Positions 15,420 to 38,253 of a stretch of DNA of 64,000 nt are shown here, one piece after another. The notes under the pieces were generated by a model that did no database searches, was not told the DNA's origin, and worked only from the letters and a program-made list of their open reading frames with translations. Source of the stretch: a virus; IMG/VR virus record IMGVR_UViG_3300021378_000004. The stretch is one strand, 5' to 3'. Position 1 is the stretch's first letter. Every line of letters begins with the position of its first letter. The position numbers and the translations under genes are program-made.

Positions 15420-18148
15420 TGGCATTTTATACCAACCTTTATCGATTCAAAAGTAACATATACTATCGCGGTTATTCATCTAACGGCGATAGAGTTACTA
15501 AAAAAGATCATTATGAACCAAAGTTCTATGTTACTACACCAGACGAAACTGGTTACAAAAGTATTGATGGTCATAATGTTGGATCAATAAATTTTAAAAG
15601 TATGTATGAAGCTGGACAATGGTTACGTGATAACCTCGAAGTTTCAGGTAGAAAAATTTATGGTAATAAAAGATATATTTCTCAGTATGTAATGGATAAA
15701 TTTCCAAATGATATTGAATTTGATCGTAGAGCAATTAACGTTGGTACATTTGATATTGAAACAGATTATGATGATGGCTTTCCACATCCTGATCAAGCTG
15801 CTCATAAAATATTATCGATATCATATAAGTCTAGTAAATTTTCAACATATCATGTGTGGGGTTATGGTGACTTTGATACTGAAACAGCACTTATAAGTGA
15901 TGTTAAATATACTAAATGTAATAGCGAAGAAGAACTACTTGAAAAGTTTATAGAATTCTGGTCACATCCAGAAATTACACCTGACGTCATTACAGGTTGG
16001 AATACAAGATTCTTCGATATACCTTACGTAATCAAACGTACATCAGATGTACTAGGTATAGAATACTTACACAAGTTTTCACCATATGGTTTACAAATAC
16101 CAGAACCTAGAAAGGTTATGTATCGCGGCAGAGAAAATCTAGTTTATGAAATTCCTGGTATTCAAACTTTAGACTACATGGAATTATTTCAAAAGTTTGG
16201 TTACACTTATGGTCCACAAGAATCATATGCATTGAATCATATTGCTTATGTTGTACTCGGTGAAAAGAAACTTTCATATGAAGAATCAGGTTCACTTAAA
16301 AATCTTTATAAAGATGATTATCAAAAGTACATCGATTATAATATGAAAGACGTACAACTTGTTGATAGGCTCGAAGAAAAACTTGGACTTATTACGTTGG
16401 CTATAACTATGGCCTACAAAGGTGGTGTTAATTTTCAAGACACATTTGGTGTAACTGCTATATGGGAATCAATTATTTTCAGAAAGCTTTATCAAAACAA
16501 AGTAATTACTCCTCTTACTCAAAAATATGATGATTATCAAATCATAGGTGCTACCGAAACATCAAAGAAAAATCCATCGCCTGCTTTTCGTGCAGAAGGT
16601 AAATCGCATAATATTGCTGGTGGTTATGTTAAAGATCCTGTCCCAGGTAAATACGAATGGGTAGTATCATTTGATTTAAATTCACTATATCCTAATATCA
16701 TTGTGCAAAATAATATGTCACCAGAAACAATAGTCGAATATCCAAAACAACCTGAAGAACTTGCAAGAGCTGCAAATGAAACATATTATCGTAAAGACTT
16801 TCAAGGTGTACTTCCAAAAATTATTGAAGAATATTATGATGAACGTGTGTCTGTTAAAAATATGATGTTAGCTGCTAAATCTGAAATGCAAAAAGGTTAT
16901 ACATTTGAATTAGATAAAGAAATAAACAATCTAGAAAACAGACAAATGGCTATTAAAATTCTACTTAATAGTTTATATGGTGCTCTTGCTAATAAACACT
17001 TTCTATATTTCAGACCATCACTTGCTGAAGGTGTAACACTTACTGGTCAAAAAGCAATTAAACATGCTCAAACAACAATGAATATTCAATTAAATGATGT
17101 ACTTAATATAAATTGGCGTAAAACTTCACTACCAGCTGTTTTAGATGAAAATTTTCATAAAAAAGGTATAGAATGGATAACTAATGAAAAACGTCACATA
17201 GAAATTCTTAACGATCCTGAACACAATTTACATTATGATAAAGAAAAAGAAATGTATTATACTAAACATTTTGAAAAAAAACCAGGATTTCAGATTTATA
17301 TGCCACTTGAAATATATATGACAGACTATGTTATCGCAATTGATACCGATTCTTTATACGTCAACTTTGGACCATTGGTAGAGAAATTTGCACCAAATAA
17401 TCCAGTTTTATTCTTAGACCAAATTTGTAAAGATCACTTCGAACCAGCAATTGCTAAAGCTTATAATGAATTCTTTAAAATGCACAATGCATATAAAAAC
17501 AGAATGGTTATGGCAAGAGAAGCAATATCAGATGTTGGTATATGGACTGCAAAGAAAAGATATATACTTAATGTACACAATAATGAAGGTGTACAATATG
17601 CTGAACCTAAACTTAAGATTATGGGTATTGAAGCTATCAAGTCTTCTACACCAGAAATTGTACGTAATAAATTTAAAGAAGCATTTAAGCTTATAATATC
17701 TGGTACTGAAAAAGAAACACAAGCTTTCATTGCAAAATTTAAAGCTGAATTTAAAAGTTTAAATCCAGAAGCTGTAGCTTTTCCACGTGGTGTTAGTAAT
17801 ATAACAGATTGGCATGATAGAAAAACTATATTTAAGAAAAGCTGTCCAATACATGTGCGTGGTTCATTACTACACAATTATTATCTTAAACAAAATAAAC
17901 TTAATAACAAATATGAACTTATTCAAAATGGCGATAGAATTAAATTTGTATATTTAAAACTACCAAACTCTATAAAACAAAATATAGTATCATTTAAAGA
18001 TGTATTGCCTAAAGAATTAAAACTACATAATTATATTAACTATGATTTACAATTCGAGAAAACATTTATCGAACCACTAAATCTAATACTTAACCCAATC
18101 GGCTGGTCAGCCGAAGAACAAGCAACACTGGAGGATTTTTTCGTATGA
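15419..18148 (+). CDS. gp43: Family B DNA polymerase gp43, with a ~70-aa insertion before motif C
   Basis: Exonuclease DIETD and GWNTRFFD; SFDLNSLYP (A), KILLNSLYG (B), IDTDS (C), KKRY; C-terminal clamp motif LEDFF. Confidence 0.98.
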   Translation: MAFYTNLYRFKSNIYYRGYSSNGDRVTKKDHYEPKFYVTTPDETGYKSIDGHNVGSINFKSMYEAGQWLRDNLEVSGRKIYGNKRYISQYVMDKFPNDIEFDRRAINVGTFDIETDYDDGFPHPDQAAHKILSISYKSSKFSTYHVWGYGDFDTETALISDVKYTKCNSEEELLEKFIEFWSHPEITPDVITGWNTRFFDIPYVIKRTSDVLGIEYLHKFSPYGLQIPEPRKVMYRGRENLVYEIPGIQTLDYMELFQKFGYTYGPQESYALNHIAYVVLGEKKLSYEESGSLKNLYKDDYQKYIDYNMKDVQLVDRLEEKLGLITLAITMAYKGGVNFQDTFGVTAIWESIIFRKLYQNKVITPLTQKYDDYQIIGATETSKKNPSPAFRAEGKSHNIAGGYVKDPVPGKYEWVVSFDLNSLYPNIIVQNNMSPETIVEYPKQPEELARAANETYYRKDFQGVLPKIIEEYYDERVSVKNMMLAAKSEMQKGYTFELDKEINNLENRQMAIKILLNSLYGALANKHFLYFRPSLAEGVTLTGQKAIKHAQTTMNIQLNDVLNINWRKTSLPAVLDENFHKKGIEWITNEKRHIEILNDPEHNLHYDKEKEMYYTKHFEKKPGFQIYMPLEIYMTDYVIAIDTDSLYVNFGPLVEKFAPNNPVLFLDQICKDHFEPAIAKAYNEFFKMHNAYKNRMVMAREAISDVGIWTAKKRYILNVHNNEGVQYAEPKLKIMGIEAIKSSTPEIVRNKFKEAFKLIISGTEKETQAFIAKFKAEFKSLNPEAVAFPRGVSNITDWHDRKTIFKKSCPIHVRGSLLHNYYLKQNKLNNKYELIQNGDRIKFVYLKLPNSIKQNIVSFKDVLPKELKLHNYINYDLQFEKTFIEPLNLILNPIGWSAEEQATLEDFFV

Positions 18149-18561
18149 GTACGAACTGGTTTAAAGACATGCAAGCCATGCATAAGAAATATGGCGTAGA
18201 TGAATGGATGAAAAAAGAAAAAGTATCTGATTGGTCTAGACTTAATAAGTTTATGGATTTTAGAATTAAGATGATGCAAGAAGAACTTGATGAAACTAAA
18301 ACAGCATTTAAAAAAGGAGATGCTGAAGAAGTTGTAGATGGCATTATAGACATGTGTGTCTTTGCTATCGGTACATTAGAAGTATTTGGCGTTGATGCTA
18401 ATAAAGCTTGGGACCAAGTATTAAAAGCGAATATGTCAAAAGAAGTTGGCATTAAAGAAGGCAGACCTAATCCTCTTGGTTTACCAGATTTGGTAAAGCC
18501 TGAAGGTTGGGAAGGTCCTACACATAAGGGAAATCATGGAAATATCACTGACTCTTTTTAA
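18145..18561 (+). CDS. All-alpha NTP pyrophosphohydrolase (MazG/PRA-PH-like), candidate dCTPase
   Basis: EELDE...EEVVDGIID acidic motif; ANMSK, DLVKPEGW. Confidence 0.8.
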   Translation: MSTNWFKDMQAMHKKYGVDEWMKKEKVSDWSRLNKFMDFRIKMMQEELDETKTAFKKGDAEEVVDGIIDMCVFAIGTLEVFGVDANKAWDQVLKANMSKEVGIKEGRPNPLGLPDLVKPEGWEGPTHKGNHGNITDSF

Positions 18562-20356: not shown

Positions 20357-20598
20357 TGGCTAAAGAGATGATTGAAGATGTTGTAAGATTTGATAACATT
20401 ATATATGTTGGCGACTTAGTAGAAACCAAGTATGGCGCTTGTAGAATTAAAAAGATAGAGTTAATGCCTGAAAAAAGACATTTCTCTAAGTGTGGAATAA
20501 ATGTAAATAAAATGTTTACATCCATGATAGATCAGTGTATAATAGATCTAGATAACAGACATTTTGTATATGGAGATGAAATTGAAAGAATCGGTTAG
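20356..20598 (+). CDS. Hypothetical protein
   Basis: TAATG translational coupling to the upstream gene. Confidence 0.6.
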   Translation: MAKEMIEDVVRFDNIIYVGDLVETKYGACRIKKIELMPEKRHFSKCGINVNKMFTSMIDQCIIDLDNRHFVYGDEIERIG

Positions 20599-20905
20599 AG
20601 TATTAAATGAATGTGTTGCATTACAGAATAAAAAGTCTGATGACTATCAGAATAAAGATTCGAATGTAACTCAAGCAATGCATTATCGTCGTGGTGTTGA
20701 TAGCATACACGATATAATTCAAGGTAAATGCTATCGTGCACAATCTATATTAGAAAGTCAAGGTGATCCAAACTTTGAATCACTCGAAGATACTTACAAA
20801 GATATAATTAATTATTGTTCATTTGCAGTATCTTATATGCGTGGTAAGATGGACGGCCAAAAAATGGATAGAGATATGTACAATAAGTTAAAAGGTAAAA
20901 TATAA
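20576..20905 (+). CDS. Nucleotide-modification-associated all-alpha protein (DUF1599/Nmad1-like)
   Basis: KKSDDY...K..R....NFESLEDTYKDIINY pattern; directly upstream of the dCMP hydroxymethylase. Confidence 0.65.
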   Translation: MKLKESVRVLNECVALQNKKSDDYQNKDSNVTQAMHYRRGVDSIHDIIQGKCYRAQSILESQGDPNFESLEDTYKDIINYCSFAVSYMRGKMDGQKMDRDMYNKLKGKI

Positions 20906-21594
20906 TGATTAGTTATGATATGATAAAAACTGATGATATACGATCTTACTTCTATACTGAACTAAGACAAGAAAATTTTATTACTGATAAAAATGGCGGT
21001 AAACTAATTGAAATGCTTGGTGCATGTTTTATTGCAGATAAACCATCTATATTTGGTACACCTAAAGAAGATTATATTAAAAGAGAAATTGCTTGGTATA
21101 GCAGTCAAATTGGTAATGTGAATGCAATAGAAGGTGATACACCTGAAGCATGGAAATTAGCTGCTAATGATTATGGTCAAGTCAATTCAAACTATGGTCA
21201 ACTTATTTGGTCTGATAAATACTTCAACCAATACGGTAGAACATTAGATGAATTGCTACAAACCCCAGATGGCCGTAGAGCCACTATGGTTTATAACAGA
21301 CCAAGCATATGGGAGGAATACAATGAAGAAGGTAAAAGTGATTTCATATGCACTAATGCCGTTACTTATTATATACGTAATGATAAGTTATTCGCCGTTG
21401 TTCAAATGCGCTCAAACGATGTCGTGTTCGGATACAAGAATGACTATGCTTGGCAGCTTTATGTTCTAGAATTATTGGTTGAAGACTACAATCAATGTAA
21501 GAACGAAAGTATAGAACCAATTTCATGTGGTGATATTATATGGCAAGTTCAAAATATGCATGTTTACGAAAGGCATTTTCATCTTGTCAAATAA
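20905..21594 (+). CDS. gp42: dCMP hydroxymethylase (thymidylate synthase fold, T4 gp42-like)
   Basis: REIAWY, NSNYG, SDFICTN (catalytic Cys), MRSNDVVFGYKNDYAW (Asp at the dCMP-specificity position as in T4 gp42), HVYERHF; a separate thyX is present. Confidence 0.88.
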   Translation: MISYDMIKTDDIRSYFYTELRQENFITDKNGGKLIEMLGACFIADKPSIFGTPKEDYIKREIAWYSSQIGNVNAIEGDTPEAWKLAANDYGQVNSNYGQLIWSDKYFNQYGRTLDELLQTPDGRRATMVYNRPSIWEEYNEEGKSDFICTNAVTYYIRNDKLFAVVQMRSNDVVFGYKNDYAWQLYVLELLVEDYNQCKNESIEPISCGDIIWQVQNMHVYERHFHLVK

Positions 21595-22021
21595 GTGGGA
21601 TAAAAGATTTTTAGAAATGGCAAAGCTTGTAGCTTCGTGGTCAAAAGATCCATCAACACAAGTTGGTTCAGTTGCTGTAAGAAATAGAACTGTTATAGCT
21701 CAAGGTTATAATGGTTTTCCTCGAGGCGTAGATGATCATGAATTATATTATTTAAACAGAGCAATAAAATACAAACGTATAGTTCATGCAGAAATGAATG
21801 CAATTTATAATGCAGCAGAAAATGGTGTATCATTAAAAGATTCTACAATATATGTGATAGGATTGCCAATATGCCATGATTGTGCAAAAGGCCTAATACA
21901 AGCTGGCATAAGTAGAGTTGTTACGCCAGAACAAGAAATACCAGAAAATTGGCAAGATTCAATAACAACTTCAATATCAATGTTTAAAGAAGCTGGTGTA
22001 ATATGGGATTGGATAAAATGA
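21584..22021 (+). CDS. cd: dCMP deaminase (probable TTG start)
   Basis: SKDPSTQVG, GYNGFPRG, HAEMNA, PICHDC. Confidence 0.93.
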   Translation: MSNKWDKRFLEMAKLVASWSKDPSTQVGSVAVRNRTVIAQGYNGFPRGVDDHELYYLNRAIKYKRIVHAEMNAIYNAAENGVSLKDSTIYVIGLPICHDCAKGLIQAGISRVVTPEQEIPENWQDSITTSISMFKEAGVIWDWIK

Positions 22022-22034
22022 AAAGGATAACATT

Positions 22035-23147
22035 ATGAAAATACTTGTAACAGGAATGAATAAAAATCAAGTCACAGAGAATTTTTATTTAAAACAACAA
22101 TTAAGAGTAGTGCCTTCACATTATTCTTTACTACGATGTTTAAGAGATATGGGTCATACTGTTGAACAAAGATTAGTGAAAATTGGAGAAGACTTATCTT
22201 CATATGATAGAGTTATTTGTTTCTTAGCTTCACCAAGACAAGCGTTACAACTTACATTTTATAATGGTTTATGGGCAATACACGATACTCCAAAAGATAA
22301 ATTAATATTGGCATTTGATGATTGGCAAACAGATGGAATATTCAAAGGCATTCTTTCATGTACTGATAAAGAATCGCTTTTAAAAGAATTTACTATAAAT
22401 CAAAGCACAACAGATCCAGATATTAGTAGAGAGTTATTAGAACCTCATACTGATGTTTTATTAGATGCAATAAAATACATTGGTGAAAAGAAATCACGTA
22501 TTTTACTTTCTGTATTTGCTGGTGGTGATATGACTAAACTTATTGAATACGATCCAAGTTTGTTATTTGGTTATAATCCAAATCCTTATCATAGAAATAG
22601 AGTACCAGGTAATAGAAGTGATATTCAAAAAAGCGAAATGAATTTCATGGAAGCACAACTTATACCAACTAAAGAAGAAGATGAAGTATCTTGGTTTAAC
22701 AAAGAAAAATGTTTTAACTTTGCTTCTTTAGTTCAAGGTAGAACTGCTAAATGGTTAAAGAAACAAAATATTAGTAAATGGAAAATAGAATATTTTGGTT
22801 CAAGAAAAGAAAAACAAAGACGCTTGTCTGAAGAAGACATGTGTAAAGTTTATGGAGAACAATGGGGTTGCTTAATGCCAGGGTATGAACATGCCGGATC
22901 TGGTTGGTGGAGAGCAAGACCTTTACAAGTTACTGATGCTGGTTCAATCTTGATTGGCGATTACAACGAACTTATAGTATTATTTGATAATGAAGAAGCA
23001 GCATCAGTAAAAGCTTCTGATCTTGAAGAATTATCAGACTACCAACTAATACAGCTAGCCGCACTACAAAAAAGCTCGATATATACTAAACATCCTTTAA
23101 ATAAAGAAACACAACAGAATGAATTAAAGAAAGCTTTAAACATATGA
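22035..23147 (+). CDS. DNA glycosyltransferase, T4 beta-glucosyltransferase-like (GT-B)
   Basis: N-terminus MKILVTGM..VVPS...LRDMGHTV...DLSSYDRVI resembles, from memory, T4 BGT (MKIAIINMG..TVPS...SEMGLNV...DVNDYDRLI); sits in the hmC cluster. Confidence 0.7.
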   Translation: MKILVTGMNKNQVTENFYLKQQLRVVPSHYSLLRCLRDMGHTVEQRLVKIGEDLSSYDRVICFLASPRQALQLTFYNGLWAIHDTPKDKLILAFDDWQTDGIFKGILSCTDKESLLKEFTINQSTTDPDISRELLEPHTDVLLDAIKYIGEKKSRILLSVFAGGDMTKLIEYDPSLLFGYNPNPYHRNRVPGNRSDIQKSEMNFMEAQLIPTKEEDEVSWFNKEKCFNFASLVQGRTAKWLKKQNISKWKIEYFGSRKEKQRRLSEEDMCKVYGEQWGCLMPGYEHAGSGWWRARPLQVTDAGSILIGDYNELIVLFDNEEAASVKASDLEELSDYQLIQLAALQKSSIYTKHPLNKETQQNELKKALNI

Positions 23148-24154
23148 AAATATTAGTAGTAGGTGCAGGTTTCTCTGGTGCAGTAGTTGCACACAAATTA
23201 GCAAACGCTGGCCATGATATACACGTCATAGATGAAAGAAACCACATTGGTGGTAATGCTTATGACTATACAAATAAAAGAGGAATACGAATTCATAAGT
23301 ATGGTCCTCATTTATTTCATACAAACAACGAAAAAGTTTATAACTGGGTTACACAATTTGGCGAATGGGAACCATACAAACATAAAGTCAAAGCACAGCT
23401 TGACGATGGTAGGTATGTAACATTACCAGTTAACAAAGAAACACAAGATATAGTAGGTAAAGAAAATATTGTAAGTACTTTCTTTGCACCATACACATAT
23501 AAAATGTGGGGTAAAACTATAGAAGAATTAGATCCATCTATTCTTAAAAGAGTACCAGTACGTGATGACGATAACGAATATTACTTTCCTAATGACGAAT
23601 ATCAAGTATTGCCAAAAAATGGTTACACCGCGGTATTTGAAGAAATACTAGATCATAAAAATATTAAAGTAGATTTATCAGTAAGATTTAGTAGAAGTAT
23701 GGAAAAAGATTTTGATCATATTTTTAATGCTATGCCAATAGATGATTACTTTAATTATTCTTATGGTGCCTTGCCATATCGCTCAATTAAGTTTCATCAT
23801 GTTGACATACCTATGACAAAAGTATTACCGACTGGTACAGTTAATTTTACACATGATGGTCCTTATACTCGAGTCACTGAATGGAAGAATCTACCGTGTC
23901 ATGGTATAAATAATCAATACACAACACTCACATACGAAGAACCTTGTGATTACCTAGTCAACAATCAAGAAAGATATTATCCAGTAAAAGATGTTGATGG
24001 TAACAACCGAATTAAATACGAACAATATAAAAAACTAATTCGTTCAAATATGACGTTTATAGGTCGTTGTGGAATGTATGTCTACGTAGATATGCATCAA
24101 GCAATTAATTCAGCACTAGCTATATCTGATAAATTTATGGAGAAAAATACATGA
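23144..24154 (+). CDS. glf: UDP-galactopyranose mutase
   Basis: VVGAGFSG, HIGGNAYD, HKYGPHLFHT, YTYKMWG, LPYRS, TRVTEWK, YYPV, GRCGMY. Confidence 0.93.
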   Translation: MKILVVGAGFSGAVVAHKLANAGHDIHVIDERNHIGGNAYDYTNKRGIRIHKYGPHLFHTNNEKVYNWVTQFGEWEPYKHKVKAQLDDGRYVTLPVNKETQDIVGKENIVSTFFAPYTYKMWGKTIEELDPSILKRVPVRDDDNEYYFPNDEYQVLPKNGYTAVFEEILDHKNIKVDLSVRFSRSMEKDFDHIFNAMPIDDYFNYSYGALPYRSIKFHHVDIPMTKVLPTGTVNFTHDGPYTRVTEWKNLPCHGINNQYTTLTYEEPCDYLVNNQERYYPVKDVDGNNRIKYEQYKKLIRSNMTFIGRCGMYVYVDMHQAINSALAISDKFMEKNT

Positions 24155-24900
24155 AAGTAGCAATCACAGGATCAAGAGGTTTCATTGGAAGTCACCTTAA
24201 AACAAGACTTGAATCAGAAGGACATGAAGTTGTTGAATGGGATTTAAAACAAAATCCAGCTAAATGCATAAAAGATTTTACTCCTGATGAAATTAACTAT
24301 TGTATACACCTTGCAGCATACGCTGATGTGAGAGCAAGTATAGAAGATCCTCAAAAATATTGGAGAAATAATGTAGAGAATACTACAAGAATACAATTAA
24401 TTTGTCATCATAATAATATACCATTACTATATGCATCTTCATCATGTATTCATAATTGGTGGTTATCACCATATGGCGTAAGTAAAAAAGTAAATGAAGA
24501 AACAGCTTATGAAAAACAAGTTGGATTAAGATTTACTACAGTTTATGGTGATGGCGCTAGAGAGTCAATGCTTATCGGTAAACTCATTGATGGTACAGTT
24601 CAGTATCTCACGAGACACGTAAGAGACTTTGTACATGTTAGTGATGTTGTAGATGCAATACTTATTCTTATGAGTAAAGATATCGGTATGTTAAAACCTG
24701 CTTATGATATCGGTACTGGTGAAGGAAACGTTGTAGAAGAACTTGGTATCATTGCTGGTTGGGAAGGTATCGAAGTACGAGATGGCGATGCTTGTGAAGC
24801 ACAAGATAATACTGCAGATATAACAGAGATGAAAGCATTAGGGTGGAATCCTAAAGTTAAAGTAGATGAATATCTTATTACTAATACAGTACCTCACTAA
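24151..24900 (+). CDS. NAD-dependent epimerase/dehydratase (extended SDR)
   Basis: ITGSRGFIG, HLAA, YASSS, PYGVSK, LRFTTVYG, RDFVHV. Confidence 0.9.
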   Translation: MKVAITGSRGFIGSHLKTRLESEGHEVVEWDLKQNPAKCIKDFTPDEINYCIHLAAYADVRASIEDPQKYWRNNVENTTRIQLICHHNNIPLLYASSSCIHNWWLSPYGVSKKVNEETAYEKQVGLRFTTVYGDGARESMLIGKLIDGTVQYLTRHVRDFVHVSDVVDAILILMSKDIGMLKPAYDIGTGEGNVVEELGIIAGWEGIEVRDGDACEAQDNTADITEMKALGWNPKVKVDEYLITNTVPH

Positions 24901-26099
24901 TGAGATTCGCCAGTATAATACCACTTATAGGTGGAGCAACACTTGCAATGCAAAATGTTTTGCAAAGAAAGCCAGAGTATTTATTAAGTTATGATGTTTT
25001 TAAAGAAAATGATAATCACTTGGTACAATATTATAAAGGAGCAGTTCCCTATCATCTTTATGGAGACAATGGGGTTCCTAACTTACCTAATGTTGAGGTT
25101 ATTAATACTGTATGCCCATGTGCTGGTCTTAGCAGTCTTAGTCCTTCAGCTAGTAGCGATGCTGCTGCTAACGATTGGATGCTTACCTCTGCTAATCTTG
25201 TCTTGGGTACACTCAAACCTCACGTATTCTGGGGAGAAAACGCACCAGGACTTGCTTCGAACATCGGAAAACCAGTTGTTGCAAAACTTAGAAAAGTTGC
25301 AGAAAAGTTTGGGTACACTTTCTCAATATATAAAACGAAGTCTATCCTTCATGGATTAGGTCAAGTAAGAAACAGAACTTTCTATTTCTTTTGGAAAGGT
25401 GATAAGGTACCTAAGTTTGAATTTATAAAAAGAGAACATGAGAAAATTGATGAGACTATTAGATCAATAAAAAGAAGATCTGACGATCCAATGAATATTC
25501 TTACTAATAAAACAACGCCTTCAGACAATCCATTTTATAAGTACGTTCTAGAAGAAATGTGTGGTGGAATTGGTCATAAAGAATTTGTTGAAAAGAAAAT
25601 AACAAGATCTCAAAACGCAATGGATTACATCGAATGGAACGGTGGAAACTATAAAAGCGTATCAAAATGGATGGATGCTCAAGGATTTGATAAACTTGCT
25701 GAAAGATGTAGAAAAATACATAGTAAGTTAGCTCAAGGCGGAAACATTATGAGAAAGCTTGTGCATTTTCCAAAAGAAACTATTGGTGCATTTGTTGGCC
25801 ATATGCCAAATCAACTTACACATCCAGATGAAGATAGATTTCTGACTGTAAGAGAATGTATGTCAATAATGAAATTACCTGAAGACTTTACGTTACAAGG
25901 TGGACTAAAGAATTTAAATCATATATGCCAAAACGTGCCTGTTACTACAGCCGAAGATATGGCTGAGCATGTACAAAAGTTTGTAGACGGTAGATTAGGA
26001 AATCAAATGCTAGATACAAATTTTTTAATTCAAGATAACACAAATAAAAAGTTAAATTTTGAAAAAAACAGTGTACAATTAGATGCTTTTATGGTATAA
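24900..26099 (+). CDS. C5-cytosine DNA methyltransferase-like protein with atypical motif I
   Basis: Motif IV CPCAGLS, VI GENA, VIII QVRNRTF, IX RFLTVREC, X QNVPV; motif I reads IPLIGG instead of FxGxGG. Confidence 0.75.
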   Translation: MRFASIIPLIGGATLAMQNVLQRKPEYLLSYDVFKENDNHLVQYYKGAVPYHLYGDNGVPNLPNVEVINTVCPCAGLSSLSPSASSDAAANDWMLTSANLVLGTLKPHVFWGENAPGLASNIGKPVVAKLRKVAEKFGYTFSIYKTKSILHGLGQVRNRTFYFFWKGDKVPKFEFIKREHEKIDETIRSIKRRSDDPMNILTNKTTPSDNPFYKYVLEEMCGGIGHKEFVEKKITRSQNAMDYIEWNGGNYKSVSKWMDAQGFDKLAERCRKIHSKLAQGGNIMRKLVHFPKETIGAFVGHMPNQLTHPDEDRFLTVRECMSIMKLPEDFTLQGGLKNLNHICQNVPVTTAEDMAEHVQKFVDGRLGNQMLDTNFLIQDNTNKKLNFEKNSVQLDAFMV

Positions 26100-27972: not shown

Positions 27973-29329
27973 TTTAGAACAAACTATATTACGTAATCTT
28001 TTAACAGATGAAGATTACATGCGTAAGGTGTTACCGTTTATAAAGCCTGATTATTTTGTTGGAATATACAGAGTATTGTTTAATGAAGCTGGTAAGTTTG
28101 TTGCTAAATATAATAAGTTGCCAACTGGCGAATCATTTAAGATTGAATTAGATCAATCAGAAAAATTAAGTGAAGAGCAATATAGCATGGCAATTGATAT
28201 TGTACCACAACTTTTTAATAAAAATGATGTTGATGAAAATTGGTTACTTGATACTACTGAAAAGTGGTGTCAAGATCGAGCAATATACAACGCTATTATG
28301 GAATCAATATCAATTATTGATGGTAAACACGAACAATTAACAAAAGGTGCTTTACCTGATTTATTAAGTAAAGCACTTGGTGTAGGATTTGATCTTAAAG
28401 TTGGTCACGACTATACAGAAAATGTGGAAGAAAGATATGACTTCTATCATACAGAAGAAGATAGACTACCATTTGATTTAGAATACTTTAATACTATCAC
28501 TAAAGGTGGTGTTCCACGTAAAACTCTTAATATTGCTTTGGCTGGTACTGGTGTTGGTAAATCTCTTTTTATGTGTCACGTTGCCGCTTCATCTTTAGTT
28601 CAAGGCCATAACGTATTATACATTACAATGGAAATGGCTGAAGAAAGAATAGCAGAAAGAATCGATGCTAACTTACTTAATGTACCTATTGATCAATTAG
28701 ATAAATTATCAAAAGATATGTTTACTACAAAAGTAAATGACATTGCGCGTAAAACAACTGGTAAATTAATCATAAAAGAATATCCTACTGGTTCTGCACA
28801 TTCAGGTCATTTCAGAGCATTACTTAATGAACTTAAATTAAAAAGACAATTTGAACCAGATCTTATCTTTATTGATTATCTTAATATATGTTCAAGTTCT
28901 AGAATGAAAGCAATGGGAGGATCAATCAATTCATACACTTACATTAAAGCAATTGCTGAAGAATTACGTGGCCTTGCGGTCGAATTTAACGTACCGATCT
29001 TTTCTGCAACGCAAACGACTCGTTCTGGTTTTAGTAACTCGGATGTTGGGCTTGAAGATACAAGTGAGTCTTTTGGATTACCCGCAACAGCCGATCTAAT
29101 GTTTGCATTGATATCTACCGAAGAACTAGAAAAACAAGGCCAGTTTATGGTTAAACAATTAAAGAACAGATATAATGATCCAACAGCTCATAAAAGATTT
29201 GTGGTTGGTGTAGATCGTAGTAAAATGCGACTATACGATGTAGAAGAAACAGAACAAACATTAACAGACGATTCGCCAGTATTCGATAAAACTCCAACTG
29301 GCGAAAGATTTAAGGATTTTAAGTTATGA
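27956..29329 (+). CDS. gp41: Replicative helicase gp41
   Basis: LAGTGVGKS, ITMEMAEERIAERIDAN, IDYLNI, SESFGLPATAD, QLKNRY. Confidence 0.97.
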   Translation: MHMPTNLEQTILRNLLTDEDYMRKVLPFIKPDYFVGIYRVLFNEAGKFVAKYNKLPTGESFKIELDQSEKLSEEQYSMAIDIVPQLFNKNDVDENWLLDTTEKWCQDRAIYNAIMESISIIDGKHEQLTKGALPDLLSKALGVGFDLKVGHDYTENVEERYDFYHTEEDRLPFDLEYFNTITKGGVPRKTLNIALAGTGVGKSLFMCHVAASSLVQGHNVLYITMEMAEERIAERIDANLLNVPIDQLDKLSKDMFTTKVNDIARKTTGKLIIKEYPTGSAHSGHFRALLNELKLKRQFEPDLIFIDYLNICSSSRMKAMGGSINSYTYIKAIAEELRGLAVEFNVPIFSATQTTRSGFSNSDVGLEDTSESFGLPATADLMFALISTEELEKQGQFMVKQLKNRYNDPTAHKRFVVGVDRSKMRLYDVEETEQTLTDDSPVFDKTPTGERFKDFKL

Positions 29330-29997
29330 TAGCAAAATTAATTTCATATAGTAAACCATCTGAGTTTGAAGCGTATCAAGATGAATGGAATATAAAATCT
29401 TGTCAAGATCTTATAGCATATTGTGCTAGAGTTTCTAATCCATCTGGTCAAGAAAACACAGCAACAAATGAAAAACTTTTAAAATATTTGATTAAACATC
29501 AGCATTGGTCACCGTTTGAAATGGCGAGTGCTTGTATTGAAATCAATACAACTAGAGATATAGCAAGGCAGATATTAAGACACCGCAGTTTTAGTTTCCA
29601 AGAGTTTAGTCAAAGATATGCAAATCCAGTAAAGGAGTTAGAATTTGTCACACGAGAAGCGAGAATGCAAGATAATAAGAATAGACAAAGTAGTATCGAA
29701 GTTGATGACGAAGCTTTCCAACTCGATTGGGAAAGAGAACAGCAAAGAGTTATCTGGATGTGTAGGCAAGTTTACAATACAGCCATCAAAAAAGGAATTG
29801 CAAAAGAAGTTGCTAGAGCAGTTTTACCAGAAGGATTAACTACATCTAGATTATATATGAATGGTACTATAAGAAGTTGGATTCATTTTATTGAATTAAG
29901 ATCTTCTAATGGTACTCAAAAAGAATGTAGTGAAGTTGCTATGGCATGTGCACAAGCGATATCAAAAATATTTTCAATGGAAGAATTTATAAAATGA
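29326..29997 (+). CDS. thyX: Flavin-dependent thymidylate synthase ThyX
   Basis: HWSPFE, RQILRHRSFSFQEFSQRY, ARAVLP. Confidence 0.96.
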   Translation: MIAKLISYSKPSEFEAYQDEWNIKSCQDLIAYCARVSNPSGQENTATNEKLLKYLIKHQHWSPFEMASACIEINTTRDIARQILRHRSFSFQEFSQRYANPVKELEFVTREARMQDNKNRQSSIEVDDEAFQLDWEREQQRVIWMCRQVYNTAIKKGIAKEVARAVLPEGLTTSRLYMNGTIRSWIHFIELRSSNGTQKECSEVAMACAQAISKIFSMEEFIK

Positions 29998-36565: not shown

Positions 36566-37168
36566 ATGATGGCAACTCACACAAATAAAGACTCTCGCAA
36601 TTTAATGCACGTAATAAAACCTAATACTGTTGGTGCAGAAATTGGTGTTTGGTTTGGTAATACATCAACACAATTTTTAAAAAAAGGTTTAAAAAAACTA
36701 TACATGGTTGATCCGTATTCTGTTGAACCATATAAAGAAAACTCAGAAATGACGTATCAAGAATATCTTGCAAAATATCAACCAATTACTGGAGAATTTG
36801 CAGAAGTAGGTTTTCAAAAATATTATGATAAAGTTTATGCAGAAATTAATTCAAGATTTAGAACATACAAAGAAGTTGAAATCTGCCGTATGTTGTCTGG
36901 CGAATGGTTTAAAAAATATAGTGACGTTGAGTTAGACTGGATCTATATTGATGGCGATCATTCATACGAAGGATGCTTAAGTGATTTAGAAAATGCATTA
37001 AAAGCAGTAAAAGCAGGCGGTCTTATATTAGGTGATGATTATGGTTGGCCTAATAATAAATGGAATAAACCAGGTGTAACAAAAGCAGTTAACGAATTTA
37101 TAAATACCAATAACTTAACTAATAGCATGTTTAGACATGGTGAAACACAATTTGAGATAAGAATATGA
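36566..37168 (+). CDS. Class I SAM methyltransferase (Methyltransf_24-like)
   Basis: GAEIGVWFG, VDPY, DWIYIDGDHSYE, GDDY. Confidence 0.88.
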   Translation: MMATHTNKDSRNLMHVIKPNTVGAEIGVWFGNTSTQFLKKGLKKLYMVDPYSVEPYKENSEMTYQEYLAKYQPITGEFAEVGFQKYYDKVYAEINSRFRTYKEVEICRMLSGEWFKKYSDVELDWIYIDGDHSYEGCLSDLENALKAVKAGGLILGDDYGWPNNKWNKPGVTKAVNEFINTNNLTNSMFRHGETQFEIRI

Positions 37169-38253
37169 AAAAATATACAGTTACTTATGAAGTAGATGGT
37201 CCAGATATTGCAAAAATAGCACATGAAATTGCTATTGGGCAAAGTATAGGAAATCCAAATATTAGATCTGAAATAGAAAACGCAACAAATGTAAAAGATT
37301 ATATAGCGCAAGTTAAAAGCATAGATAAAAATATCGTTGTTATAGAATTCCCTTTAGGTGCATTTGATTGGCCAAATATTAATCAATTGATGTGCATCAT
37401 TATGGGTGGTCATACTGATATTTTAGGTGTTGATAGATGTAGAGTAATAGACATAGACATACCAATTAAAACAATTGAACCACTTTTAGGTATGAGCGGA
37501 TGGAAAAAAAGATTAAATGCAGAAAATAGACCATTATTTGGCGCTATTGTTAAGCCTAAGTCTGGTCTTAATAAAGAACAGTTGTTATCTTTAGTTAAAG
37601 ATATGATGTATGGCGGAGCAGATTTTATTAAAGAAGATGAGATCATGGCAAATAACTCTTATTTACCTCTGCAAGAAAGAATTGATGCTATTGAACATCT
37701 TAAAACAATATCTGGTTGGAAAGGTTTTTACGCTTATTGTATTAACGCTGATCCTTTAGAGTTAGTAGACAACTGTGCAGCAGTAAAAATGGCTACAAGT
37801 AGTGAAGGAACTGTTGGCGGTGTGCATATTAACTTTTGGTCTGGACTTGGTGCATATACAACTGCTAGAAAATACTGGATTGCAACACACTACCAAAGAT
37901 CTGGCATACGCATTTTGACTGATCCAAGTAATAAATATTCTTTATCATGGCCAGTTTTAGTAAAATTAGGCTGCATGGCGGGGATTGATAGTATGCATGT
38001 TGGCATGCTAGGTGGATATTATCCAGAAGGTGAAAGCGAAACAGAAACACTTGAAGCAATAAAGATTTGTAATGAGTATAATGTTATTCCTTCGTTAAGT
38101 TGTGGTATGAATCCAGTACTTGCAAGAGAAATTAAAGAACGCATAGGTAACGATTGGATGGGATCAGTTGGCGGTTGGTTACACACTGGTGATGGTACAA
38201 CTGGTAATACTTTGTACCATAAAGTAAAACAAATGAGTGAGGCAATGTTATAA
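37165..38253 (+). CDS. RuBisCO-like protein (form IV)
   Basis: IAIGQSIG, RPLFGAIVKPKSGL, GGADFIKEDE (carbamylation motif), HYQRSG, AGIDSMHVG, SCGM, VGGW. Confidence 0.88.
   Translation: MKKYTVTYEVDGPDIAKIAHEIAIGQSIGNPNIRSEIENATNVKDYIAQVKSIDKNIVVIEFPLGAFDWPNINQLMCIIMGGHTDILGVDRCRVIDIDIPIKTIEPLLGMSGWKKRLNAENRPLFGAIVKPKSGLNKEQLLSLVKDMMYGGADFIKEDEIMANNSYLPLQERIDAIEHLKTISGWKGFYAYCINADPLELVDNCAAVKMATSSEGTVGGVHINFWSGLGAYTTARKYWIATHYQRSGIRILTDPSNKYSLSWPVLVKLGCMAGIDSMHVGMLGGYYPEGESETETLEAIKICNEYNVIPSLSCGMNPVLAREIKERIGNDWMGSVGGWLHTGDGTTGNTLYHKVKQMSEAML

Follow-up and report, generated by a model that had tools for sequence, protein, structure and literature searches.

A glycosyltransferase-mutase-epimerase module predicted to furanosylate hydroxymethylcytosine in viral DNA

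Introduction

Which sugar is added to the DNA of a virus that encodes, side by side, a T4-type dCMP hydroxymethylase, a glycosyltransferase and two enzymes that could convert a common nucleotide sugar into a furanose donor? This question is raised by a stretch of 64,000 nucleotides of DNA from an uncultured marine T4-like phage (IMG/VR record IMGVR_UViG_3300021378_000004), the whole of which is here called the window, and in particular by the seven-gene operon at positions 20564-26099. In the list of open reading frames (ORFs) of the window, these genes form a run on the plus strand with overlapping or abutting ends, encoding an Nmad1-type protein, an orthologue of T4 gp42, a dCMP deaminase, a glycosyltransferase (GT), a UDP-galactopyranose mutase (UGM, also Glf), an epimerase-like short-chain dehydrogenase/reductase (SDR) and a protein resembling C5-cytosine methyltransferases (MTase-like). 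An earlier sequence-only reading had listed this run together with a ThyX gene at 29326, and each gene is present on the plus strand as described there. The same reading had proposed that the epimerase and the UGM build a UDP-furanose for a GT that resembles T4 beta-glucosyltransferase (BGT) and acts on 5-hydroxymethylcytosine (hmC). The evidence gathered below supports that proposal, with sugar and acceptor both predicted: the GT probably adds a furanose, most likely galactofuranose, to hmC in DNA.

The glycosyltransferase and its relation to T4 BGT

The GT (22035-23147, plus strand, 370 amino acids) lies outside Pfam and NCBIfam. Sequence searches of PDB, Pfam (E values up to 10) and NCBIfam returned no match, and the model of Pfam PF09198 (GT63), the family of T4 BGT, is among those left unmatched. 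The protein nevertheless belongs to a large and mostly marine family, which comprises 727 metagenome clusters at E <= 0.001. An AlphaFold (AF2) model built on 42 family members (pLDDT 91, pTM 0.89) predicts a GT-B fold. When this model was compared with PDB by Foldseek, T4 BGT ranked first (1qkj, E 1.8e-6, TM 0.52-0.56), followed by generic GT-B enzymes; an independent search by VIA-align over 48,161 representative chains also put BGT in first place (1c3j, Z 16.1, rmsd 3.9 over 285 residues). A structural comparison of the 22035 protein to BGT had been set in advance as a test of the furanosylation proposal, and BGT came out on top in both searches.

At the level of sequence, hhalign compared the profile of the GT family with one built from 23 BGT homologues and aligned the initial 60 columns (probability 94.6%, E 6.6e-8), so that the likeness between the two N-termini, formerly noticed by eye, is real. 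The HMMER profile of the family gave E 0.02 against T4 BGT, which is not significant. Three residues of the GT, D95, D96 and W97, show no variation among 42 family members; they are part of an AFDDW motif that follows the strand at 90-94, and the motif would correspond in a hand alignment to LFTD100, which holds the catalytic Asp of BGT. From profile and model together, the GT is a distant relative of T4 BGT rather than a member of PF09198, and is predicted to be a DNA hydroxymethylcytosine furanosyltransferase.

The position of the gene points in the same direction. The order in the window is gp45 (8509), gp44, gp62, gp43 (15419), a MazG-like protein, primase, Nmad1, gp42, cd, GT, UGM, SDR, MTase-like, UvsX (26127) and gp41 helicase (27956), and that of T4 is 45-44-62-regA-43-imm-42-bgt-segA-uvsX-40-41. 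In RB69, the base-proximal (that is, the first) arabinosyltransferase gp46:47 lies between the thymidylate synthase (TS) homologue and uvsX, the same slot as the window GT. In other words, the GT is found where T4-like phages keep their first sugar transferase acting on DNA.

Predicted synthesis of the acceptor base

The gene upstream of the deaminase (20905-21594, plus strand) encodes a TS-fold protein orthologous to T4 gp42. Its match to PDB 1b49, the T4 dCMP hydroxymethylase (E 7.5e-72), covers residues 5-228, that is, full-length homology, and it is 50% identical to T4 gp42 versus 28% to RB69 gp48, a 5-hydroxy-dCMP synthase. In the alignment, the catalytic Cys lies in SDFICTN (SDFMCTN in T4), followed by SND and YKND (FRND in T4), and the protein has Asp at the position of N177 of E. 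coli ThyA, Asp at ThyA 143 and Asp, not Asn, at ThyA D169. According to the criteria of a recent study, Asp at ThyA N177 denotes specificity for dCMP and an acidic residue at ThyA L143 a hydroxymethyl product (PMC13326640). The same study reports that RB69 and DLP3 make 5-hydroxycytosine instead of hmC, by means of TS homologues with Asn at the D169 position (PMC13326640, 2026). The window protein reads MRSND...KND as in T4, whereas RB69 gp48 reads MRSQN...QLD, and each gp42 found in related loci has MRSND at ThyA position 169. Because of the T4-like MRSND...KND and of the low identity to RB69 gp48, the TS-fold enzyme is, as judged from its residues, a dCMP hydroxymethylase making 5-hydroxymethyl-dCMP. 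The signature MRSNDVVFGYKND, on which the assignment to T4 gp42 had originally been based, does occur in the sequence, and the assignment is upheld by the Cys and by the Asp residues at positions 177 and 169. A 5-hydroxycytosine synthase of the RB69 type was also considered for this gene and was ruled out by the Asp at the D169 position together with the 28% identity to RB69 gp48.

Two further enzymes would take part in this section of the pathway. The T4 cd-like dCMP deaminase (21527-22021, plus strand; PF00383 E 3.7e-22, phrog_174 E 1.6e-46) is expected to provide dUMP for the flavin-dependent thymidylate synthase ThyX (29326-29997, plus strand; PF02511 E 1.2e-40), and ThyX would make dTMP, freeing the TS-fold enzyme for dCMP.

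A different TS-fold protein was observed on two related contigs (L082, 291 kb, and L083, 93 kb). It is divergent, with about 30% identity to gp42, and has SND, Asp at the N177 position and a C-terminal extension of about 100 residues; its gene lies far from the GT-UGM pair of those contigs.

Acceptor evidence from related loci

The comparison was extended to 80 IMG/VR loci encoding a relative of the GT, of which 55 have at least 4 kb of upstream sequence and 76 have room for a UGM to be detected, and to a tree of 98 members of the GT family. A gp42 of the hydroxymethyl type is present in 48 of the 55 loci. Among complete genomes, the only one without a TS-fold gene is that of phage C48C1 (OQ984149), the closest deposited phage genome, whose UvsX is 74% identical to that of the window. 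In C48C1, a gene for a TET/JBP dioxygenase (PF12851, E 3.3e-17) lies directly upstream of the GT-UGM pair. The dioxygenase is not peculiar to this phage: in a sister clade of GTs (17 rows, support 99) it was found in each of the 17 metagenomic loci with sufficient upstream sequence, as well as in C48C1, and in two of these (L099 and L109) the order TET-GT-UGM-SDR-UvsX reproduces the slot of the window with TET replacing gp42. In the tree, TET-linked and gp42-linked GTs form two well-supported sister clades. The strongest argument for the nature of the acceptor follows: as two unrelated sources of hydroxymethylpyrimidine, gp42 and TET/JBP, are each joined to GT-UGM-SDR, the acceptor should be a DNA base of this type. 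The search for TET/JBP in five gp42-type or fragmentary relatives detected none, a result that carries little weight since control genomes were equally silent.

The missing TS-fold gene of C48C1 was considered as a break in the link with hydroxymethylated bases, and dismissed on account of the TET/JBP gene directly upstream of the GT. The cassette itself deserves a separate mention, as C48C1 (L001:5554-9001) and the loci L094-L112 combine TET/JBP, GT, UGM and, in most cases, an SDR without a TS-fold gene. A search of the whole C48C1 genome found no PF00145 methyltransferase, and consequently the dioxygenase may oxidise thymine and the acceptor may be hydroxymethyluracil. The product of a C48C1-type cassette may then be galactofuranosyl-hydroxymethyluracil, which would be the counterpart of base J in a bacterial virus.

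A more distant homologue of the GT (24% identity, E 2e-13) is found in Morganella phage vB_MmoM_Rgz1 (L093:7001-8068), in an arabinofuranosyl DNA-modification cluster of the RB69 type, where it has the arabinose-5-phosphate isomerase on one side and the sugar nucleotidyltransferase on the other. This placement suggests that furanose donors are used throughout the GT family.

Predicted synthesis of the sugar donor

The UGM gene (23144-24154, plus strand) encodes a protein that matches the full PF03275 model (E 5.9e-52), scores 281.5 bits with TIGR00031 and aligns with PDB 3hdq at E 1.5e-71. With respect to the Klebsiella enzyme 1wam, the alignment shows that the residues in contact with UDP-galactose are kept, namely F151, F152, Y155, T156, W160, R174, Y185, R280, Y314, R343 and Y349. 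The following gene (24151-24900, plus strand; PF01370 E 4.3e-26) encodes an extended SDR of 249 amino acids, similar to 4-epimerases, with the motifs GxxGxxG (TGSRGFIGSHL), Ser (ASSS) and YxxxK (YGVSK); its best PDB matches are 4-epimerases (MoeE5, 6.5e-16, and GalE). On these grounds the SDR is epimerase-like and is predicted to supply UDP-galactopyranose from UDP-glucose.

The association of GT and UGM is widespread. A UGM directly follows the GT in 69 of the 76 loci with room for it, which, together with the frequency of gp42 given above, answers the check on co-occurrence of glf, gp42 and a BGT-like gene that had been suggested for the locus. The adjacency is kept across at least four genomic contexts, including motA-UGM-GT, TET-GT-UGM and ThyX-SDR-GT-UGM-RNR, and holds at all depths of the family tree, including branches with as little as 27-36% identity. 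Most marine loci also have some kind of SDR epimerase along with the pair, and other relatives have a different SDR on the opposite side of the GT. The pair is present in cultured T4-like phages as well: Aeromonas phage 25 (L084:7364-9545) and Erwinia phage FBB1 (L085:7937-10062) have the order motA-UGM-GT and also encode a gp1 kinase and a gp42 of the hydroxymethyl type. Matches to the pair were also obtained in Aes508, Aes012, phiAS4, AS-gz and Stenotrophomonas phage IME13. Related UGMs also occur in phages of Rhizobium and Agrobacterium.

Proposed pathway

The acceptor and donor steps of the pathway outlined here are drawn from sequence and known family functions, and we infer the transfer, its stereochemistry and its effect. 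dCTP would be hydrolysed by Nmad1, possibly also by a MazG-like protein encoded at 18145, and the resulting dCMP would be converted by the gp42 orthologue into 5-hydroxymethyl-dCMP (hm-dCMP), while the deaminase and ThyX would sustain the supply of dTMP. Following phosphorylation of hm-dCMP by a kinase, the polymerase would put hmC into phage DNA. As regards the donor, the simplest route leads from UDP-glucose to UDP-galactopyranose, by the SDR, and then to UDP-galactofuranose, by ring contraction in the UGM. The GT would flip hmC out of the duplex and move the furanose onto the hydroxymethyl oxygen, and the product would be beta-D-galactofuranosyl-hmC if the GT inverts as BGT does. Furanosyl-hmC may protect the DNA against restriction and against nucleases recognising hmC or glucosyl-hmC, as a variant of the T4-type camouflage.

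A broader proposal is put forward more tentatively. That is, abundant marine T4-like phages might replace all of their cytosine by the undescribed base beta-D-galactofuranosyl-5-hydroxymethylcytosine, and GT-UGM-SDR might be a portable furanosylation module, combined with a source of hydroxymethylpyrimidine that acts before replication (gp42) or after it (TET/JBP); the C48C1 form may give the base-J-like galactofuranosyl-hydroxymethyluracil.

Points against and alternative explanations

Several observations weigh against the assignment of the GT as a furanosyltransferase of hmC and against galactofuranose as its sugar. The fold alone does not single out BGT, since glycogen synthase (Z 15.6), PimA (15.1) and T4 alpha-glucosyltransferase (14.9) score close to it; the sequence alignment to BGT is confined to the 60 N-terminal columns of the family, and the equivalence of AFDDW with LFTD100 was drawn manually. 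A search of the window for a T4 gp1-type dNMP kinase, the activity needed for the step from hm-dCMP to hm-dCDP, gave no hit, and neither gp1 nor a thymidylate kinase was detected in the complete 219-kb genome of a relative (G005). As for the donor, the 281.5 bits of the UGM fall just below the NCBIfam equivalog cut-off of 303.75 for TIGR00031, and the protein is short of about 33 residues of the helical domain. The best PDB match of the SDR is a UDP-glucuronate 4-epimerase, and its score with TIGR01179 (GalE) is 69 bits against a cut-off of 262, with 249 amino acids instead of about 330. Genes similar to UDP-glucose dehydrogenase are found in or next to the cluster of some relatives (L010:5272-6066, L013:5014-5787, L113:5082-6041 and also C48C1) and hint that the sugar differs between lineages; taken with the SDR scores, they mean that the sugar could be other than galactose, for instance a pentofuranose or a uronic sugar. 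In addition, two small derived subclades, one of six rows (L074-L081) and one of two (L063/L071), have the GT and no UGM, and the family is thus not strictly dependent on UGM.

The UGM-less subclades, together with the fact that BGT, the closest structural match, uses UDP-glucose, would also suit an explanation in which the GT glucosylates hmC with UDP-glucose of the host, as T4 BGT does, and in which the UDP-galactofuranose made by the SDR and UGM has another use, either in a further transferase that adds a second sugar or in a glycan of the virion or of the host surface. The window does contain a separate glycan island at 34.6-42.7 kb, with two GT25 genes (40142 and 40837), a nucleotidyltransferase (38253) and a methyltransferase (36566), to which such a donor might be directed. 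This island, however, does not accompany GT-UGM in the loci that were fetched, the genes next to the pair in Aeromonas phage 25 and FBB1 bear no sugar-related annotation, and GT and UGM are adjacent, often with overlapping ends, in at least four contexts and across the whole tree. Glucose is an unlikely sugar for the GT. A pentofuranose such as arabinofuranose, or another furanose, is a distinctly unlikely one. Here the SDR would convert UDP-xylose into UDP-arabinopyranose and the mutase would contract its ring, and bacterial UGMs do interconvert UDP-arabinopyranose and UDP-arabinofuranose. The homologue inside the arabinose cluster of Rgz1 and the dehydrogenase-like genes in or near the cluster of C48C1, L010 and L013 are favourable to this pentose, as is the fact that the furanosylated phage cytosines published so far bear arabinofuranose (PMC13326640). 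On the other hand, neither a UDP-glucose dehydrogenase nor a decarboxylase was found in the window, the galactose-binding residues of the UGM are retained, and the known arabinose clusters have no UGM and obtain their donor through an arabinose-5-phosphate isomerase, a phosphatase and a kinase-uridylyltransferase.

It might finally be argued that GT-UGM-SDR acts on a protein, a lipid or a small molecule and that its position in a nucleotide module is incidental, as the acceptors of GT-B enzymes with comparable Z scores are of many kinds. This is highly improbable: the three genes are tied to two unrelated hydroxymethylpyrimidine-forming enzymes, they always lie among genes for replication and nucleotide metabolism (ThyX, RNR, UvsX), and the GT combines the beta-gt slot with N-terminal profile homology to BGT. 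Furanosylation of hmC, with galactofuranose as the leading candidate, is accordingly the reading that we prefer.

Operon layout and other genes of the window

The junctions of the operon are tight. The stop codon of Nmad1 touches the start of gp42 (20905/20905), the stop of GT lies beyond the start of UGM (23147/23144), and the next two junctions are at 24154/24151 and 24900/24900; these overlaps are consistent with translational coupling. The operon is not a chance arrangement, because dozens of independent viral contigs show the genes in this order. When the phage collection was searched at the DNA level, the only matches were short ones in gp42 and UGM, and no close relative of the operon came up. 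DNA nearly identical to the stretch is found in seawater and marine metagenomes from several studies. The operon is spanned by metatranscriptome contigs from two runs, which extend across the GT/UGM and SDR/MTase junctions; this is not proof of expression, as RNA libraries can hold DNA and transcript ends are absent.

The first gene of the operon (20564-20905, plus strand), whose ORF has further in-frame ATGs at 20570 and 20576, encodes a nucleotide-modification-associated domain 1 protein (Nmad1/DUF1599; PF07659 E 6.9e-7, 30 bits versus a cut-off of 25), predicted to be an all-alpha NTP pyrophosphatase and found together with gp42 in most related loci. The MazG/PRA-PH-like NTP pyrophosphohydrolase (18145-18561, plus strand; PF01503 E 1e-9, phrog_671 nucleotide pyrophosphohydrolase E 5.6e-23) may serve as a dCTPase similar to T4 gp56, its membership of the pathway being putative. 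The region from primase to gp42 is flanked by two different candidates for an all-alpha NTP pyrophosphatase.

The last gene (24900-26099, plus strand) encodes the MTase-like protein (PF00145 E 9.7e-19, 68 bits versus a cut-off of 22). Motifs IV, VI, VIII and X (CPCAGLS, WGENAP, QVRNR and QNVPV) are present and strictly conserved in 36 homologues. Motif I, involved in AdoMet binding, reads IPLIGG instead of FxGxG, with PLIGG conserved in the 36 homologues, and the use of AdoMet by this protein is uncertain. The gene occurs only in the subclade of the window. Little unmodified cytosine would be expected in a phage of this kind.

Elsewhere in the window, a protein similar to the large subunit of RuBisCO (37165-38253; PF00016 E 5.4e-24) is encoded inside the sugar island, and two host-like auxiliary genes, for an Hsp20 (PF00011; 11703-12113) and a BMP/PnrA-type nucleoside-binding lipoprotein (PF02608; 13827-14846), lie between clamp loader and polymerase.

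Significance

If the proposed chemistry holds, it would add a new natural base to those of phage DNA, a hexofuranose on hmC, and the modification may be common in the sea, given the 727 metagenome clusters of the GT family and the near-identical DNA seen in several seawater studies. It would bear on the escape of marine phages from restriction, CRISPR and type IV nucleases of their hosts, and may bear on how virome DNA is recovered and read. As cultured phages carry the GT-UGM pair, the prediction can be tested now. A DNA galactofuranosyltransferase would also be a new enzyme for the selective labelling of hmC.

The cultured phages raise a point of their own. Petrov et al. (2010, PMC2993671) noted gene 42 in Aeromonas phage 25 and related phages, together with the lack of a known glycosyltransferase, and no link between the UGM-GT pair of this group and DNA modification was found in the literature searched. 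A candidate for the missing transferase is offered by the pair beside motA.

Comparison with known systems

The sugars already described on phage cytosines include glucosyl- and gentiobiosyl-hmC in T-even phages and many sugars on TET-made hmC (PMC13326640, PMC8256090, bioRxiv 10.1101/2023.12.21.572611). The novelty claimed in the sequence-only reading has to be narrowed in part, as a 2026 paper has described arabinofuranosyl-5-hydroxycytosine and a phage pathway of DNA glycosylation with a UGM (PMC13326640); what stands is that a UGM-coupled transferase acting on hmC is not described in the literature searched.

With the glucosyl-hmC pathway of T4 the window shares the gp42 orthologue, the dCMP deaminase, an NTP pyrophosphatase step and a GT-B transferase located between gene 42 and uvsX. 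Unlike T4, it encodes a donor-making SDR and UGM, which T4 lacks, and its transferase is outside PF09198; neither a gp1 kinase nor an alpha-glucosyltransferase was found for the window phage, Nmad1 or the MazG-like protein takes the place of gp56, and dTMP comes from ThyX. The arabinofuranosyl-5-hydroxycytosine pathway of RB69 and of Acinetobacter phage DLP3 is similar in that a furanose, predicted in the window, is placed on a C5-oxygenated cytosine from a phage-made donor (PMC13326640). The similarity extends to the arrangement, in which a TS-fold gene and then the base-proximal transferase precede uvsX, and to the window-GT homologue in such a cluster of Rgz1; the window differs in the Asp at ThyA 169, and thus in the hydroxymethyl product, and in its epimerase and mutase route to the donor.

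The closest parallel for the donor is Rhizobium phage RL38J1 (Pootjesviridae), where a phage UGM has likewise been proposed to supply UDP-galactofuranose for a modified cytosine of DNA (PMC13326640). The base of RL38J1 is galactosyl-glucosyl-5-hydroxycytosine, with the phage UGM and a proposed UDP-galactofuranose step (PMC13326640). Unlike in the window, the acceptor is 5-hydroxycytosine, made by a D169N synthase, and the UGM, about 35% identical to that of the window, is not beside the transferase; the best fold match of the first transferase is a protein similar to UDP-GlcNAc 2-epimerase.

Clusters linked to TET/5mYOX differ from the window in their source of hmC, for the window uses gp42 and not TET, and the papers describing them mention neither a mutase nor a furanose. 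They nonetheless resemble it in the transferases, which are GT-B enzymes acting on DNA with Foldseek E values of 1e-5 to 1e-7 to T4 BGT (PMC8256090; bioRxiv 10.1101/2023.12.21.572611). In these clusters activity needed a partner sugar epimerase, and the sister clade of the window GT is likewise joined to TET/JBP.

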